Of a stretch of DNA of 64,000 nucleotides, positions 17,226-63,197 are shown piece after piece (position 1 is the first letter of the stretch; each line of letters begins with the position of its first letter). Origin of the DNA: a virus. The translations under genes and the position numbers were made by a program. Location of the stretch: IMG/VR virus record IMGVR_UViG_3300019742_000002, positions 1-64,000 of that record, one strand, 5' to 3'. The notes under the pieces were generated by a model. The model saw nothing but the letters and a program-made list of their open reading frames with translations, had not been told where the DNA came from and did no database searches.

Positions 17226-17825
17226 ATGAAAGAATTACAAGAAGCTATAACAGCTGTTGAGGAAGAGAGATTTAGCGATTTTTCAAAAATAATTACAACA
17301 AGTCTTAGTGACAAATTTAGAAATAACCCAAAGGTTCAAGAAATGGCTGATAGGGAATTTAGAATGAAAGGTATTCAAGATGCTTTTAGAGATATTTCTA
17401 GGAAGTTGAATGAGGATGAAAAACCTAAATTTAAAGTAGGAAACGAAGTTATATTTTATGGAGTTCAAGGTGATAAAGATAGAGGTATTATATCTAAATC
17501 TTTTAAAGATGATAATATTAGAGGTGAGAAAGTATATTTTTATGATATAGAAACCAAATCTAAATTAGTAAGAGATGTACCTGAAGGTGATATTTCTAGG
17601 AAGTTGAATGAGGATGAATTAGCTTATACAATATTGGAAAATAAATTAGCTGATAGGGAACTAAAGAAATTGGGATTCTCGTTAGTAACAAATAAAGATG
17701 GGATGAAAGAATATCAAGACGATAATAAAAATACTGTTTGGTTTAGTAGTCATTATTTAGAAACAGAAACTAATGATAAAGAGCTAAAGAAGAAGATAGA
17801 AGATATTTTAAAGTGTAAAGACTAA
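17226..17825 (+). CDS. Prohead core protein (gp67/68 position) with appended domains
   Basis: Lies between portal and protease; DISRKLNEDE occurs twice around an SH3-like domain. Confidence 0.6.
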   Translation: MKELQEAITAVEEERFSDFSKIITTSLSDKFRNNPKVQEMADREFRMKGIQDAFRDISRKLNEDEKPKFKVGNEVIFYGVQGDKDRGIISKSFKDDNIRGEKVYFYDIETKSKLVRDVPEGDISRKLNEDELAYTILENKLADRELKKLGFSLVTNKDGMKEYQDDNKNTVWFSSHYLETETNDKELKKKIEDILKCKD

Positions 17826-19637: not shown

Positions 19638-21053
19638 ATGAAAACAATGATAAACGAAAAAGTAAGAGAGAGTATGAAGCATACTTACGGTGAGGATATT
19701 GTAGGGCTTTTGGAGTCTGAAAGATTTCCTGCTATTCAAGAAGATAACTTAGGAACACAAGCTATAGTATTGGAAAATACTAAAAAAGAAATAGCTAGAC
19801 TTTATGAGGATACCTCTACATCAGATGTTGCTGTATTTACACCAATATTTATGCCGATGACTCGTAGAATTCAACCAGCTCTTATAGCGAATAGACTTTT
19901 GGGTGTTCAACCAATGTCACAACAAACAGGTTACATTAATACTCTAATCTTCAAATATACAGGTTTTGGGGCAGACGCTAATGATAGACTTGGTGGAAGA
20001 ATTGACCCTGGTGTTAGTTCGCAAATTATAGAAATTACTGGTCATACACTTGTAAAAGGTGATGTTATCTCTAGTGATAATGTTCCTGATACAAATCTTG
20101 CAACTGTAATATATGTAGAGGGTGATTTACTATTGATTGATACTGCAGTATTTAGTGCAGGTGGAATTGTTTATGATAATGCGGCTGTACCTGCTCAAAT
20201 TGGTGCTTTAGTTATTGCTAATACATATTCAAATCAACTTACTTTTAAGAAAATTCTAAAAGGTTACACAGGTTCACTTCCAACCACACAAGCTGAAATT
20301 CTTGGGTATGATATGAAAGAAATCGGGTTCACTGTTACACAAACTCTTATTGAGGCTAAATCAAGAAAATTGAAAGCTGAATATACTGTTGAAATGTACC
20401 AAAACTTGAAAGATACTTATGGTCTTAATGCTGATGAAGAGTTAATGAATATGATGAGTTCTGAGGTTCTTAACGAGCTTGATAGAGAAGTTATTGATTC
20501 AGTAAACTCATGGGCGGCACCATCTAGTGACTTTACAATAGCAAACGGTGCAGGTGCAAGTGGTTCTACAAGATTTGAGATGGAATCAATGGCTCATATC
20601 GGAGTTAAAATCCAAAATGAAGCTAGAGAAGTTGGAAAATTGACAAGAATGGGTTCAGCAAATATTATATTGGCTACACCAAGAGTTGTTACAGTTCTTG
20701 AACAATTGAGAGGATTTAAAGCTATTGAGAATGATTCTATGTTGAGTACAAATGTAGCTGGAGCAAGTGTTGTTGGAACATTTGGTGGAATGGAAGTAAT
20801 CCTTGATAACTTTACTGATAGAGAGTATGTTACAGTGCTTTATAAGGGAGATAATAGGGCATCTATAGGCTACTACTCACCTTACAAAGGCATCTCATTT
20901 ACTAGAGTAACTCATCCTGATACAGGACAACCTGCTATTATATTGAGTTCAAGATACGGTTTGATTGAAAACCCACTAAACCAAGATAATGGTGTTGGTA
21001 TCTTTGGTAGAACATTTGATGTTATATTTGATTCTACATCGGTATTAGCATAA
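19638..21053 (+). CDS. gp23: Major capsid protein gp23
   Basis: RRIQPALIA..GVQPM, AKSRKLKAEYTVEM.Q.L..GLNADEEL, YYSPY, QPAI..SRYGL..NP. Confidence 0.97.
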   Translation: MKTMINEKVRESMKHTYGEDIVGLLESERFPAIQEDNLGTQAIVLENTKKEIARLYEDTSTSDVAVFTPIFMPMTRRIQPALIANRLLGVQPMSQQTGYINTLIFKYTGFGADANDRLGGRIDPGVSSQIIEITGHTLVKGDVISSDNVPDTNLATVIYVEGDLLLIDTAVFSAGGIVYDNAAVPAQIGALVIANTYSNQLTFKKILKGYTGSLPTTQAEILGYDMKEIGFTVTQTLIEAKSRKLKAEYTVEMYQNLKDTYGLNADEELMNMMSSEVLNELDREVIDSVNSWAAPSSDFTIANGAGASGSTRFEMESMAHIGVKIQNEAREVGKLTRMGSANIILATPRVVTVLEQLRGFKAIENDSMLSTNVAGASVVGTFGGMEVILDNFTDREYVTVLYKGDNRASIGYYSPYKGISFTRVTHPDTGQPAIILSSRYGLIENPLNQDNGVGIFGRTFDVIFDSTSVLA

Positions 21054-21059
21054 CAAAAT

Positions 21060-21085
21060 AAATTAGAGTCTTTTGGCTCTAATTT
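21060..21085 (+). terminator. Terminator after the capsid gene
   Basis: aaattagagtc-tttt-ggctctaattt hairpin. Confidence 0.75.
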
Positions 21086-21134
21086 AATAAGAAAGTGTAT
21101 ATTTTAAGTAACTATACACTATAATTATAAAGAT

Positions 21135-21211
21135 AAAAAATCTTTTATATCCAATAAGAAACTTTACTAGGCTCAACTTATTGGATATAAAAGATTTTTT
21201 GAGCCTAGTAA
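21135..21211 (+). promoter_or_regulatory. Structured 5' leader (24-bp hairpin whose loop is complementary to the 3' flank)
   Basis: 21135-21158 pairs perfectly with 21177-21200; 21164-21176 pairs with 21199-21211; follows sigma70 promoter 21103-21125. Confidence 0.8.
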
Positions 21212-21244
21212 CTCAAATATCTTAATTAAAATTTAAGGTTATAA

Positions 21245-22018
21245 ATGAAATATACAACTCCAAAAATACCACACGAGGATTTATTCTTCAAAGATGTAAA
21301 ATTTAAAACTACAGGTTATTATGTAAAAAGATTTCCAAAAGAATTGGAAGAGTTTCTTATTATGGATTTAGATTTAAAACATTCAAAAAGATACTACATT
21401 GATTCAGTTTATAGATTCTATATAGATAATTTAGAAGAATTAAAAACAGATATTACTCCTTTTATAGAATTTTATAAATCCAATAATAAATTTTATGGTA
21501 AACCTACAATAGCTAAAACATATCCTGAATTATTAGAACAATGGATAGAGGCTACCAAAAAAACTGAATATACAGTAGAAAAATTATATGAATTATGTAT
21601 AAAAGGAGCTTTACCAAAACCAAGAGAAAAATATAATAAAATGATAGTGGATTCTTTATGTGATGAAGCAAAAGAAGAATTTAATAAAGGTGTTAAATTG
21701 TCTTTTGTTATAAGAAAATATATTAATAAAGAAGATATTAATACTCTTTGTAAATCTTGTGGTAAACCAGTTAAACAATTAACAAATGAGTGTTTAGATT
21801 GTACTAAAAGTTTAAAGCAAAAAAGAGCTTCTAAGAAAAGAGGTTTAAGAATGTTAGAAGATAAACCTTCTTATGTTAGTGTTGTAAAAGGTGATGTATT
21901 TTCAGAAGATATTCGTAGAGAAAGACTTACGATTAAATGTTCTAATTGTAATAGAGAATTTTCTTATGTATTGAACTTAGGTAAGAGACACCTATTCTGT
22001 CCAATATGTGATAAATAA
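21245..22018 (+). CDS. Zinc-ribbon protein resembling the DNA-binding part of a homing endonuclease; no nuclease domain visible
   Basis: CKSC, CLDC, CSNC, CPIC then stop; directly downstream of gp23. Confidence 0.55.
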   Translation: MKYTTPKIPHEDLFFKDVKFKTTGYYVKRFPKELEEFLIMDLDLKHSKRYYIDSVYRFYIDNLEELKTDITPFIEFYKSNNKFYGKPTIAKTYPELLEQWIEATKKTEYTVEKLYELCIKGALPKPREKYNKMIVDSLCDEAKEEFNKGVKLSFVIRKYINKEDINTLCKSCGKPVKQLTNECLDCTKSLKQKRASKKRGLRMLEDKPSYVSVVKGDVFSEDIRRERLTIKCSNCNREFSYVLNLGKRHLFCPICDK

Positions 22019-22020
22019 GT

Positions 22021-22052
22021 AGATAAACCTAGTTAAATAACTAGGTTTATCT
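22021..22052. terminator. Perfect 15-bp inverted repeat, bidirectional terminator
   Basis: agataaacctagtta-aa-taactaggtttatct. Confidence 0.8.
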
Positions 22053-23098: not shown

Positions 23099-23220
23099 CT
23101 ATAACAAAAACTTATAATAATTAAAATTTGTAAATAAAAACTCTTATAATAAAGAAAAAGAATTAAAAATTTTAAAAAATATAAATTATTATATTCAATC
23201 GTAGATACTTTTTTATTTTA
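23099..23220 (+). repeat. Dispersed repeat, copy B (right arm of palindrome 1)
   Basis: Near-identical unit, inverted relative to copy A. Confidence 0.95.
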
Positions 23221-23340: not shown

Positions 23341-23859
23341 CTATTTAAATCTCTTAGCCAAATCATAATCTGTTTGGGTAATAATTTTAAATTTATCATA
23401 TAATATAGGTGAGGTTTGGCTTTTCTTTGTGTACATCTTATGAAAATTATTATGATGTTCTTCGCACAAACATACACCATTTGAGTCTTGATAAGCCAAT
23501 GTTGGATGGGTAGCTTTGTCCCATAAGTGGTGTGCAGTTAATTTTTCTTTAGTGTGACATATATCACATTTACCCACCTCTTTAACTCTCATAGCCCAAG
23601 CTTTGAGTTTGACTTGGTCGAACTTTTTTGTTTTTGGTTGAACTTCTATACCTTTTCTTTTAGGTTTTAGTTTATTTAACTCATATTTTAAGTTATTCTT
23701 GTCTATTCTTAAAATAGACAAATTTTCTTTCAACTTAGAATTATCAACTTCAAGAACTTTAATATTATCTTTCAATATATTATAATCCTCTAGTCGAGTA
23801 TAGCCAAGATAGTTTGCTAAACTATCAATAAGTTTTGTAAATGTTGTTTTAGTGTTCAT
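23341..23859 (-). CDS. HNH endonuclease with N-terminal coiled coil
   Basis: KCDIC...LTAHH...NGVCLCEEHHNNFH. Confidence 0.85.
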   Translation of the reverse strand: MNTKTTFTKLIDSLANYLGYTRLEDYNILKDNIKVLEVDNSKLKENLSILRIDKNNLKYELNKLKPKRKGIEVQPKTKKFDQVKLKAWAMRVKEVGKCDICHTKEKLTAHHLWDKATHPTLAYQDSNGVCLCEEHHNNFHKMYTKKSQTSPILYDKFKIITQTDYDLAKRFK

Positions 23860-24308
23860 CTTATTTCCTTTATTTTAGTATGTCTAATTATACTAAAATA
23901 AATATAAATCTAAGCTTAAACTCTTTTATTTATTATTATATCTTTTCTATCTTTTACAAGCTCACGAGTTGCTTTTATAAAAGTTTCAGATAACTCACTT
24001 ATAAATTGATTAGTATATGGTAAATTATTTTTTATAAGAAATGGAATTATATAAGGTTTAATCTCTTCAATTTGTTTTGTATTTATTTTATTTTCTCCTT
24101 ATCTAATATAAAATCATAAGCGTTACATAAAGCTTCATAATAAATATTACCATAAAATTTATCAAGATTATACACATTTCTTTTTGATATATCTTTATAT
24201 AGTGATATAGAAAACCTATTAGTGTGTTTATCTATATTGTTTGTATAACCTAAACATAAACTGTTAATTTTACCTAACATACCATCTATCTTCATTTTTT
24301 TAATTCCT

Positions 24309-24620: not shown

Positions 24621-24676
24621 TTTATTCCTTTGTTTTTATATAGTGTAATTATACCCAATTAAACTTAAAGTAACTT

Positions 24677-24809
24677 AAAACCATCTACAATTAAAATATA
24701 ATAAAAACTTATAATAATCAAAATTTGTAAATAAAAACTCTTATAATAAAGAAAAGAATAAAAAATTTTAAAAGTTATAAATTAATATATTCAATCGTAG
24801 ATACTTTTT
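24677..24809 (+). repeat. Dispersed repeat, copy C (solo)
   Basis: Full unit from aaaaccatct to tcgtagatacttttt. Confidence 0.95.
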
Positions 24810-24870
24810 ACAAATATCAATAAAAAAGGAGTTCAAATGTTTTGACTTTAGATAAGAGTTTGTGAACTAG
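24809..24870 (+). pseudogene. Decayed copy of the late promoter, RBS and first codons of gene 30432-31418
   Basis: tacaaatatcaataaaaaaggagttcaaatgttttgactttagataagagttt versus tataaatatcaataaaaaggagtttaaatgttagattttagagaggaattt at 30405. Confidence 0.75.
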
Positions 24871-30258: not shown

Positions 30259-30405
30259 AAAACCATCTAAGATTAAAAAATTATTTATAGTATATAATAA
30301 AAACTTATAATAATCAAAATTTGTAAATAAAAACTCTTATAATAAAGAAAAGAATAATAAATTTTAAAAAATATAAATTATTATATTCAATCGTAGATAC
30401 TTTTT
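30259..30405 (+). repeat. Dispersed repeat, copy D (solo)
   Basis: Full unit; abuts late promoter 30405-30412. Confidence 0.95.
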
Positions 30406-30431
30406 ATAAATATCAATAAAAAGGAGTTTAA

Positions 30432-46387: not shown

Positions 46388-48181
46388 CTATAGAAGAGCT
46401 ACCTTGGTGTATATAAATCTATCAAGAGTCATAAAACCTTTGAGTAACTGTAAACTATAGATAGTATTTGTTATTAGTTTGATAAAGAGCATCTTTCTAA
46501 TATTGTTCTTAAATCTTTTAACCCCTATCTTAATACCCTTTTTAATAGAGTGAATTAATTTAGCTCTTTTTCTTCTTTTAATAAACTCTTTTCTCTTTTT
46601 TTCTGATTCAAAATATTTAATATAACTTCTAGTTTCAGAAAAATCTATTATTTGATTGTTTAATTTCAACATCTTTTGAATTTCTTTAATATCAGTTAAT
46701 TCAAGTTTAGAAATTTCATTAATAGGAATAAGAAGTCCATCATGTACATTTACTATATGTTCAATTTTAATTTTTTTAGTACCTAGGTATGCTTTAAGAG
46801 AATTCATAATTTTAGTTTCTTCTAACATAAACATTCTTGAAATATTTTCATATCCTAAATTTCTAGCTATAATATCTAATTCTTTCATTTCTGAATTAAA
46901 ATCTTTATAAAAAGTTGAAAGTTTAAGTGCATCATGTACAGTTTTATCATCTTTTGTATTTCTATTAAAAGGAGTTAAATGTCTTCCAAATATAGCACTA
47001 AGATACTCCATTTTAAACATAGACCTAAATTCAATCTTTTTGTTAGCTCCTTGTTTACCTCTAATATTATCAATTGTATCTACATTGGACTCAATAATCT
47101 TTTTTCTATTTTTTATATATTCAATAAGACAAGGATAGTTAATAGGGTCTATATTATGGTTCTCAAAACAATTCTTTATTAATCTTGGTGCGGCATTTTC
47201 TAAATCAAATTCAATATAATCTCTAAATAATCCATTTCTTATTTTTTTAGGAATCTGATTTAAAATATCAAAAATTCTACCAGAAGATGTAAATGTTCTA
47301 TTAAAATAAATATGTTCATCTACTATATTTTTTCTTATTAATTTCATAGAATTAATATATCTTCTTCTTTGAGCTGGGTATCTCATATATCCTATATCAT
47401 TATCTAATTCATCGAGAATCTCTAAGTAATTATTGGGTAATTTAAATTTTATAATATCTTTGTAATTTTCCTTAGGAACTTCTCTTGGAATATTTTTAGA
47501 TTTAGATGTAGTTACATCATCAGAGAGTCTCATTATAACCATATCAATAGGTTTTAGAGGTTTTTGTTTAGAGGCTATATCATAAAACTCCTGATATTTG
47601 GCTAGAGAAATAGTACCATTTAGAACTTTTTTAAGAATAGTATCTACTTTTTGGACTTTTGAATATACTTGGTTACTGTTGTCATAAGGATTGTTTAAAA
47701 ATTCATAAGAAGAACAACCTGAACCATCAAAAGAATTACCTCTTCTTGTTTGATTAAGATAAAGGTTATAGAAATCTCTATATGATACAAAAGAAGATAG
47801 GGATTTTTTAAGGTAGGTATTACTAAGAGCAAGGTCACCTGTTAATTCATGAACTGAATGAGCAGAAGAAAGTAGTTTAGAAATAGATTTTAGAACATTG
47901 ATTGATAGGTTATATTTAATATATTTTTTTGCACTTTTAAATTGAATCATATCTTGAACAATACTAGGATGTGGAACTATAGAGTAACTTCTTTTTTGTT
48001 TTTCTATATTAGTAAAGGTTTTATCTGATTTAATTGCAGTATGAACTTGAATAATAGCCTCTTTTGGATTAAGGATATTTTTAATGTAGTAATAATCCTT
48101 GTGGATTGTAAGATATGTTAGGTCATAATTAAATGGATTGGTAAGTATATAATCTTTGAGGTTTTCTTTTTTAATTTTCAT
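46388..48181 (-). CDS. PolA-superfamily (TV-Pol-like) polymerase without a recognisable exonuclease domain
   Basis: SGRIF..L..IPK.IR; motif A YIEFDLENAAP; motif B R..FK..YLSAIFG; EETKIM; motif C VHDG. Confidence 0.75.
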   Translation of the reverse strand: MKIKKENLKDYILTNPFNYDLTYLTIHKDYYYIKNILNPKEAIIQVHTAIKSDKTFTNIEKQKRSYSIVPHPSIVQDMIQFKSAKKYIKYNLSINVLKSISKLLSSAHSVHELTGDLALSNTYLKKSLSSFVSYRDFYNLYLNQTRRGNSFDGSGCSSYEFLNNPYDNSNQVYSKVQKVDTILKKVLNGTISLAKYQEFYDIASKQKPLKPIDMVIMRLSDDVTTSKSKNIPREVPKENYKDIIKFKLPNNYLEILDELDNDIGYMRYPAQRRRYINSMKLIRKNIVDEHIYFNRTFTSSGRIFDILNQIPKKIRNGLFRDYIEFDLENAAPRLIKNCFENHNIDPINYPCLIEYIKNRKKIIESNVDTIDNIRGKQGANKKIEFRSMFKMEYLSAIFGRHLTPFNRNTKDDKTVHDALKLSTFYKDFNSEMKELDIIARNLGYENISRMFMLEETKIMNSLKAYLGTKKIKIEHIVNVHDGLLIPINEISKLELTDIKEIQKMLKLNNQIIDFSETRSYIKYFESEKKRKEFIKRRKRAKLIHSIKKGIKIGVKRFKNNIRKMLFIKLITNTIYSLQLLKGFMTLDRFIYTKVALL

Positions 48182-48215
48182 CTAATTCTCCTTTTTTATT
48201 TAGTCAAAAGTAGAA

Positions 48216-48289
48216 TGCTGTCCTACTTCTTAAGAGAGTTCATATCAAGTGGTAGGACAGCAAAAGCACCTGTATATGAACTCTCTTAA
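48216..48289 (-). promoter_or_regulatory. Structured 5' leader (long hairpin whose loop is complementary to the 3' flank)
   Basis: 48230-48245 pairs with 48274-48289; inner 48246-48251 with 48267-48272; 48216-48226 pairs with 48252-48262; lies between late promoter 48301-48308 and the RBS. Confidence 0.8.
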
Positions 48290-48318
48290 AGACTTTATGT
48301 TATTTATATATTTATTTC

Positions 48319-48359
48319 TAGTAAGATATTGGTTTATCTATATTACCAATATCTTACTA
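48319..48359 (-). terminator. 15-bp stem hairpin after gene 48370-48870
   Basis: tagtaagatattggt / accaatatcttacta. Confidence 0.75.
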
Positions 48360-48369
48360 TTCTTATTCT

Positions 48370-48870
48370 CTATACCTTAGCAGAGAATAAGAATACCATT
48401 TCGTCGCTGTTTTTTTTATAACTGTCAAAATTTGAGTTATTAAATATACTAGAACTACTAACATCTTTAAAAACTTGCTCCATTTCATCTTTAGAGATAC
48501 TTTTAGTTGATATAGATATATGGAAATATATCTTTCCATTTTTATAATCAACTAACTTCATATCAAATTTATGTATGTCCATTTTATTTAAAGTATTATT
48601 CAAGTATCTAATATCTTTATTTATCTTTATGGTTTTATCAAACTCTATATCTTTTGTTGTTATTAAGTCTTTAGAGGTTACTTTATCTATATTACCGTTT
48701 TTAATATAGATAACTCTAGCTTCTGTTGGAGATACAAATTTATCAAAAAAACCTATTTGACCGTCTACAGTTATAAATTTATCGTATACCTCAAATTCAT
48801 TAAAATTACCTTTACCCTCATTTAAGCTCATTTTCACAAACTCACTAAATCTCATATTTATTTTTTTCAC
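48370..48870 (-). CDS. Putative internal head protein
   Basis: N-terminus MRFSEFVKMSLNE; early promoter near 48889. Confidence 0.55.
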   Translation of the reverse strand: MKKINMRFSEFVKMSLNEGKGNFNEFEVYDKFITVDGQIGFFDKFVSPTEARVIYIKNGNIDKVTSKDLITTKDIEFDKTIKINKDIRYLNNTLNKMDIHKFDMKLVDYKNGKIYFHISISTKSISKDEMEQVFKDVSSSSIFNNSNFDSYKKNSDEMVFLFSAKV

Positions 48871-59957: not shown

Positions 59958-60070
59958 AAATACCTCTTTGATAATATTTATAAATAGTTATATAATACCA
60001 AAATAAACTTAAAATAACCTTAATTTTAAATAAAATTACACTATAATTAATAAAACATAAAGGAGAATGA

Positions 60071-62740: not shown

Positions 62741-62887
62741 AAAGAGTATCTACGATTAAATATATTAATTTATAACTTTTAAAATTTTTTATTCTTTTCT
62801 TTATTATAAGAGTTTTTATTTACAAATTTCACTTTTTATAAGTTTTTATTATATTTAAACTATTATATTCAATCGTAGATACTCTTT
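62741..62887 (-). repeat. Dispersed repeat, copy E, with an extra inverted terminal motif
   Basis: Unit on - strand at 62741-62856; tattcaatcgtagatactcttt on + at ~62866-62887. Confidence 0.92.
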
Positions 62888-63055
62888 ATAAATTTCATAT
62901 AGTAATTCACTTTATCTACTATAGTCAATCAAAACAATACTTCAATATAAACTATGTACTATTTAATCATCCATAAACTACCTTTAAACCACTTTAAATA
63001 ATATATCCTATACCTTACTATTAAAATCAATTAATAAAGCCTTAAAATACCCAAT

Positions 63056-63197
63056 AAAATCATCTATGATTAAAACTATAATAAAAACTTATAATAATCA
63101 AAATTTGTAAATAAAAACTCTTATAATAAAGAAAAAGAATTAAAAATTTTAAAAGCTATAAATTAATATATTCAATCGTAGATACTTTTTTATTTTA
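63056..63197 (+). repeat. Dispersed repeat, copy F
   Basis: Full unit. Confidence 0.95.

Follow-up and report, generated by a model that had tools for sequence, protein, structure and literature searches.

A candidate structured RNA leader of interleaved helices before a Hef-like homing endonuclease gene of an uncultured T4-like phage

The Locus behind the Capsid Gene

The window analyzed here is a 64-kb stretch of a 91.7-kb IMG/VR record, which derives from an uncultured T4-like phage (26% G+C, ~47% complete); the DNA runs containing the phage sequence are labeled as microbial mat metagenomes, and two of these may be its source. Downstream of a capsid gene that is distant kin of the Campylobacter phage capsid genes lie, in this order, a terminator hairpin, a promoter-like site, an element of interleaved inverted repeats, and a 257-aa ORF. 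The features of the locus are as follows.

19605, + strand: T4-type late promoter TATAAATA of the capsid gene, taken from the promoter list
19638..21053, + strand: gp23-type major capsid protein gene (Pfam PF07068, E 1e-75)
21059..21086, + strand: capsid-gene terminator hairpin, 10 bp perfect, 12 bp counting G.U pairs
21104..21127, + strand: promoter-like site TTAAGTAAC-N7-TATAATTA, predicted start ~21132-21134, 1-3 nt before arm A
21135..21158, + strand: arm A of the 24-bp stem, starting with A6
21159..21176, + strand: loop of 18 nt, whose 3' 13 nt (21164-21176) are segment B, abutting arm A' with no spacer
21177..21200, + strand: arm A', ending in U6; the A:A' hairpin has -25.7 kcal/mol
21199..21211, + strand: segment B', perfect complement of B, overlapping A' by 2 nt
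21198..21217, + strand: small hairpin H2 (UUUGAG / CUCAAA), which takes the 5' part of B' if B' is unpaired with B
21219..21239, + strand: weak local hairpin H3 (AUCUUAA / UUAAGGU), covering the Shine-Dalgarno AAGG at 21235-21238; its z-score is only -1.5
21245..22018, + strand: 257-aa ORF, N-terminal part of a Hef-like homing endonuclease with two zinc ribbons; a nuclease domain of ~290 aa is deleted
22021..22052, no strand assigned: hairpin of 14-15 bp between convergent + and - gene blocks, terminator-like on the - strand

By eye, the capsid-gene terminator resembles the TAGAGC...GCTCTA hairpin 3' of the capsid gene in contigs L015/L016. The 257-aa ORF belongs to no Pfam family, and no relatives were found among a set of 5.8 billion proteins. 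In contig L006, however, whose capsid protein is 99% identical to that of the window, the orthologous gene is intact (550 aa) and matches phrog_3339 "homing endonuclease" (E 5e-107). With the L006 ortholog as query, tblastn retrieved genes annotated as Hef-like homing endonuclease in 418 phage records, with 11-12 Hef-like gene copies per Campylobacter phage. The window ORF terminates at CPICDK, the point from which L006 and L016 run on for ~290 aa into the nuclease domain, and 0.3 kb of window sequence stands where L006 has ~1.16 kb; thus, the window gene is the DNA-binding remnant of a homing endonuclease. The zinc-ribbon gene that the earlier note took to be DNA-acting and potentially harmful is indeed a Hef-like homing endonuclease gene (HEG), here truncated.

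Protein-guided scans of viral and metagenome contigs recovered only L006, the L016 contigs, and L023, and a DNA pattern for the apical stem returned 119 matches in 118 stretches, the sole real one being the L006 contig. A Hef gene directly 3' of the capsid gene is also present in Campylobacter phage Los1, in L016, and in L023, the last with two in tandem. In L007-L010, the same post-capsid place is occupied by a homing-endonuclease-like gene with an HNH-type C-terminal motif.

Window and L006 also differ in a second replaced segment (17413-17823 vs. 919-1185 of L006), within a 199-aa ORF at 17226-17825. An intergenic repeat unit of ~120-140 nt with AATCGTAGATAC, its copies 80-98% alike, is found in both.

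23099-23220, 24676-24810, 30293-30407, 62741-62861, and 62972-63197: copies of the AATCGTAGATAC repeat in the window
64702-64837, 69901-70046, and 80103-80578: copies of the AATCGTAGATAC repeat beyond the window

Promoter Signals

The earlier note placed a sigma70 promoter ahead of the stem, a claim that stands in part. The -10 TATAATTA at 21120-21127 is exactly that of the early promoters of the phage, and the sequence around it recurs almost identically at 60036-60049, immediately 5' of gene 60071. Yet, on a matrix built from the 19 strong occurrences of the early-promoter consensus TTAAGTTTA-N6-TATAATTA, all on the - strand, the 21104-21127 site ranks poorly unless its spacer is shortened by 1 nt, since the upstream box is degenerate and lies 1 nt too far away. 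The site is plausibly a weak promoter. Late genes of the + strand carry a perfect TATAAATA 15-25 nt ahead of the Shine-Dalgarno; between 21054 and 21240 no TATAAATA late promoter occurs, only matches at 6-7 of 8 positions. Across the genome, the promoter classes are split by strand, with TATAAATA late promoters before + strand structural genes and early-type ones on the - strand, and early-type and late promoters often stand back to back within one shared cassette. Deletion of 21135-21217 leaves a leader that looks, by eye, like the ordinary short leaders of this phage; the element therefore reads as a module added onto a standard leader.

Geometry and Folding of the Element

The perfect 24-bp stem, the 18-nt loop, and the 13-nt complement between loop and tail were all found with the coordinates and sequences originally claimed. 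Complementarity of A and A' is 24/24, the longest perfect inverted repeat in the 91.7-kb record. In a null of 60 second-order Markov genomes of the same size as the record, the longest perfect stem measured 11-16 bp, against 24 observed, and the best interleaved A-B-A'-B' total was 17-23, against 37 at 21135 and 27 at a second site, 48216. A frequency equal to that of shuffled sequence had been named beforehand as grounds to abandon the pattern; 0/60 Markov genomes came near the element at 21135. Weak interleaved pairs, on the other hand, are at noise level in the genome-wide scan (21 observed vs. 18.6 expected), so that only the sites at 21135 and 48216 stand out. As a base rate, 827 kb of unrelated viral DNA held one region with an interleaved score of at least 24, GC-rich and different in kind. 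We ruled out this single locus (L094) as a member of the same class: it is GC-rich non-coding sequence near a possible integrase-like ORF (by eye). A mobile hairpin element was likewise rejected, given that the 91.7-kb record holds no second copy. At Rfam gathering thresholds the whole 64-kb window gave zero matches, and a permissive Rfam search only generic long-hairpin (miRNA precursor) matches, far under threshold.

The region 21054-21260 has an RNAfold z-score of -9.5, and 0/200 shuffles fold equally well. In the predicted fold of the full-length RNA the 24-bp stem is dominant, with B and B' ~75% unpaired; the hairpin formed by B-A'-B' alone reaches -17.7 kcal/mol, and the A:A' stem is ~8-9 kcal/mol more stable than the B:B' state. 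Both helices end by 21211, and B' sits 23 nt 5' of the Shine-Dalgarno. Constrained folding predicts a probability of ~0.1 that the Shine-Dalgarno is unpaired whether A:A' or B:B' is enforced. Since predicted accessibility is equal in both states, no direct effect on translation is visible in the window, and a toggle that opens and closes its ribosome-binding site is unsupported. The "switch" behavior proposed in the earlier note thus finds no backing here, with one stem dominating the folding and the alternative leaving the ribosome-binding site as it was. In the one metatranscriptome with a match, only the capsid gene of a relative was covered, at ~93% identity and not extending to the leader.

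A Compensatory Change in the Closest Relative

Around the site, window and L006 share 97.6% identity, and within the ~190-nt spacer they differ by one loop indel and two substitutions only. The sole indel is one T, in the loop of the 21059-21086 terminator. The substitutions, 21166 A (window) to C (L006) and 21209 T to G, fall on partners in B:B' and turn an A-U pair into C-G. As far as the two sequences tell, this change is compensatory and maintains the loop/tail helix; the chance of two substitutions matching on one pair is, by a rough estimate, on the order of 1 in 1000. With one close relative only, the compensatory pair counts as a single event, and template switching in DNA could also produce such a transversion pair in a single step. 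Only two known leader variants were seen in the DNA runs, and a contig consistent with the L006 variant came from an independent run (X4). We also considered pairing of the loop with the Shine-Dalgarno region (AACUUUA with UAAGGUU), and rejected it as chance-level: the L006 change disrupts this pairing, yet is compensated in B'.

The Same Layout at Other Endonuclease Leaders

The earlier note suspected a recurring structural class, and the same topology does recur before other HEGs in related phages (L023, L007-L010), with covariation. The shared layout consists of a long AT-rich stem, a loop whose 3' side is complementary to bases 0-20 nt past the stem and then, usually, a small ribosome-binding-site hairpin. 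It is found with unrelated sequences at four other places, namely the leaders of the two tandem HEGs of L023, those of L007-L010, and the window site at 48216. The second L023 gene (HEG2), a 35% identical homolog, has a 19-bp perfect stem and a 15-nt loop that holds the complement of AGGAGTGCA, which is the Shine-Dalgarno, 2 nt past the stem. In the leader of the first (HEG1), the 19-bp stem includes one U.G pair, and the 3' 10 nt of its 13-nt loop form B, abutting A'; B' follows 1 nt past A', ahead of a hairpin over the Shine-Dalgarno. These two genes lie right after the major head gene, at 18-4030 of L023. In the first, a Hef-type N-terminal region is combined with a nuclease of another family (phrog_15137), a sign that domains may be swapped at the hotspot.

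In L007-L010, with an HNH HEG after the capsid gene, an AT stem of 20-23 bp carries a loop partner of 12-13 nt. A TATAAATA late promoter overlaps the end of the stem, lying between A' and B', and the loop complement follows ~15-20 nt further on, ahead of a hairpin able to cover the Shine-Dalgarno (by eye). From L007/L009 to L008/L010 the flanks hardly change, but both partner segments are entirely replaced and still complement each other: 6/12 pairs of B:B' are changed on both sides, where slid registers give 0-1. Their A:A' helices add one compensatory pair and one U.G. Because U.G pairs are mismatches in DNA or in antisense RNA, they point to sense-strand RNA. Interleaved totals at the L023 and L007-L010 loci exceed every Markov null, whereas loci without a HEG or without a long leader gave no interleaved signal. 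No U run follows the analogous stems in L023 and L007-L010. A layout common to all Hef leaders was rejected, being absent from the L016 homolog and from Campylobacter phage Los1 (6 Hef genes in 50 kb).

The second interleaved leader, inside the window, and two further long hairpins of the same genome, both beyond the window, are as follows.

48178-48308, - strand: second interleaved leader, beginning ~11 nt after TATAAATA (48301-48308)
72438-72497 (beyond the window), - strand: long perfect AT-rich hairpin (stem 21 bp, loop 18 nt), immediately followed by the Shine-Dalgarno of an unknown ORF of 104 aa; TATAAATA overlaps the hairpin
79324-79373 (beyond the window), - strand: long perfect AT-rich hairpin (stem 17 bp, loop 16 nt), immediately followed by the Shine-Dalgarno of an 804-aa ORF

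The 48216 site has the A-B-A'-B' topology of the 21135 element with no sequence similarity, an architecture that, as had been proposed, is real and non-random (totals of 27 and 37, above the Markov maxima). In its best fold, the tail partner GUAGGACAGCA pairs with UUCUACUUUU; since UUCUACUUUU is also nearly complementary to the Shine-Dalgarno AAAAGGAGAA, this leader may be a relay. L008 and 48216 each have an anti-Shine-Dalgarno segment, with which the tail partner competes or against which it lies. The 597-aa gene behind the 48216 leader (46388-48181) has no recognizable family and no relatives in viral contigs. Its reading as a polymerase was dropped, with no Pfam, PHROG, or PDB support and only a weak atlas lead (0.76) to DNA_pol_A. 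The hairpins at 72438 and 79324 have no nearby loop complement, and reading the sequence of the 804-aa ORF by itself gives a Walker-A-like GSGKT motif. The idea of a class that marks DNA-acting genes in general is not supported: the 597-aa gene lacks a family, long leader hairpins also precede the 104-aa and 804-aa ORFs, and the Hef genes of Los1 and L016 are without the leader.

Two other hairpin sites of the window deserve mention. A 172-aa HNH endonuclease gene (23341-23902, - strand; phrog_119, E 1e-7) has a 13-bp perfect hairpin at 23869-23902 just before its Shine-Dalgarno, with its own -10 (TATAATTA) within the 5' arm and loop. Transcripts from this promoter would consequently lack the 5' arm, like those of T4 I-TevI and gene e. 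At 48319-48395, perfect hairpins of 15 and 14 bp abut each other, set between gene 48370-48870 and the late promoter that serves the following gene; the pair is tandem-terminator-like and overlap the end of the upstream ORF.

Function of the Element and Competing Explanations

Homing endonuclease genes are selfish, and phages have to keep them quiet. The same layout, with unrelated sequences, stands before such genes in related phages, which makes the element probably an RNA device restraining expression. As a specific model, we give about an even chance to a structured RNA 5' leader that doubles as an insulator of the Hef-like HEG cassette and limits HEG expression; this estimate includes the reading of the locus as a cassette, with its own weak early-type promoter, leader, and gene, inserted right behind the major capsid gene of a T4-like phage. 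The sense-strand RNA would hold down or gate the nuclease and insulate its gene from the very strong capsid transcription. During transcription the 24-bp stem would form first. Only 1-3 nt separate it from the predicted start, and its last bases are U6, so that it may both cap the RNA at the 5' end and halt a fraction of the polymerases; the transcription halted in this way could come from the capsid gene or from the element's own promoter, and RNA ends could be protected as well.

The loop cannot reach B' while the stem is whole, as B' begins where the stem ends, and on geometric grounds the two full helices cannot coexist, for the third loop has 0 nt (a 2-nt overlap) against a 24-bp stem. 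An attenuator-type mechanism fails as well: on the sense strand, polymerase reaches B' only after A' and the U run, too late for B' to forestall the stem. Loop and tail might still pair by three routes: in a pseudoknot with the upper stem, roughly iso-energetic by estimate, if the AU-rich lower two-thirds of the stem is absent or opened; in 5'-truncated RNAs without arm A; or between two RNA molecules. In relatives, the loop/tail pairing covers the ribosome-binding site or adjoins the covering hairpin on its 5' side, and the likely effect is that translation is shut; in the window itself this last link is out of view. The intermolecular route leads to a bolder proposal, which we consider very doubtful: each leader would carry an antisense "address" on a long stem, plus its own target, and leaders, or short RNAs ended at U6, would bind full-length mRNAs of the same cassette and cause shut-off as concentration rises. 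The matched partner swap between L007 and L008, and the differing partners in L023, would on this view result from co-infecting phages being selected to keep their addresses private. If true, pairing between molecules would be a new kind of dose control.

A different origin would lie at the DNA level, with perfect interleaved palindromes left behind by fold-back or template-switch synthesis, in replication or in the repair of HEG breaks, and serving no function as RNA. Joining arm A to B' and taking the reverse complement gives exactly the 37 nt at 21164-21200, so that the layout reads as an inverted copy inserted in once-contiguous sequence; moreover, the stems are all perfect, and the elements sit at endonuclease cassettes, sites of frequent breaks and repair. 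Even the lone compensatory event between window and L006 is a transversion pair with no wobble intermediate, as if one arm had been copied from the other. We nonetheless judge this unlikely: the same ordered layout, with B at the 3' side of the loop, B' just past the stem and usually a ribosome-binding-site hairpin, is found in at least four independent sequences, the U.G pairs of L023 HEG1 and L009 are mismatches in DNA or antisense RNA, the tail partner in L023 HEG2 is the Shine-Dalgarno itself, and L007 and L008 exchange whole partner segments, complementary each time, between nearly identical flanks.

Alternatively, the A6/U6 24-bp stem might be just a second, two-way terminator and an end-protecting hairpin of the abundant capsid mRNA, the loop/tail match having no role. 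The flanking A6 and U6, the hairpin energy of -25.7 kcal/mol, the position 80 nt past a first and weaker terminator without a U run, and the long AT-rich leader hairpins at 72438 and 79324 without a loop partner would all suit such a role. That this is the whole story seems to us quite unlikely, since stem and loop are far longer than those of the evident terminators of this phage, the consensus scan makes no call, the analogous stems of L023 and L007-L010 have no U runs, and the 13-nt complement, its compensatory change, and the covarying partners of the relatives would go unexplained. We find it more improbable still that the arm pairs are dyad DNA sites for a dimeric protein, such as the zinc-ribbon domain of the endonuclease repressing its own promoter. 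I-TevI does repress itself via an operator at its promoter (PMC3014915). Relative to the predicted start, the arms span about +3 to +68, the window retains only the DNA-binding part of the protein, and a symmetric change of both half-sites preserves the dyad. Half-sites of 13 and 24 bp with gaps of 22 and 18 bp are, however, atypical, the arm sequences before homologous proteins (L023, L006) are unrelated, and U.G positions in relatives break the DNA dyad; we know of no precedent for the interleaving of two operator dyads.

Comparison with Known Systems

The structured-leader reading that we favor has its closest known counterparts in the masked leaders of T4-type HEGs and of T4 genes e, soc, and 49. 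RNA structures restrain the translation of I-TevI, mobE, and segB in T4-type phages, and masked leader hairpins are described for I-TevI, I-TevII, I-TevIII, Aeh1 mobE, and T4 segB, as well as for T4 genes e, soc, and 49 (PMC3014915). As in the T4-type HEG leaders, a cis RNA structure would occupy the leader of a phage HEG that sits as an insert amid essential genes, and in either case the presumed purpose is a nuclease made sparingly or late. The L007-L010 leaders are also T4-like in having a TATAAATA late promoter between the partners of one helix; the window element has no internal late promoter. Its main helices further exclude the Shine-Dalgarno and the start codon; in L023 HEG2 the Shine-Dalgarno does lie within a helix. 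Instead of one hairpin there are two interleaved, mutually exclusive helices of 24 and 13 bp, with a stem far exceeding those of the T4 cases, and sequence similarity is zero.

H-type RNA pseudoknots, which include the autoregulatory leader of T4 gene 32, share with the element the strand order (stem 1, stem 2, stem 1, stem 2) and, in stacked pseudoknots, a middle loop of zero length. Here, however, a third loop of 0 nt would have to span a 24-bp helix; we infer that the only sterically possible pseudoknot combines the upper third of the stem with the 13-bp helix. Two-way terminators and 5' stabilizers resemble the element as stable A6/U6-flanked hairpins after a highly expressed gene, here 1-3 nt past a predicted start. 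An intrinsic terminator has a short GC-rich stem and a 3-8-nt loop, followed by a U run; of these features the element has the U6, but its 24-bp AU-rich stem and 18-nt loop are outside the usual range, no call is made by the consensus scan, and the elements of the relatives are without U runs.

Where T4 uses simple ribosome-binding-site hairpins, we thus find a more elaborate layout with unrelated sequences and covarying helices, which recurs before several endonuclease families at one insertion hotspot right behind the capsid gene. On this evidence, folded, self-addressed leaders look like a general accessory of mobile nuclease cassettes that has so far gone undescribed, and searches keyed on the layout could locate endonuclease cassettes in phages not yet cultured.
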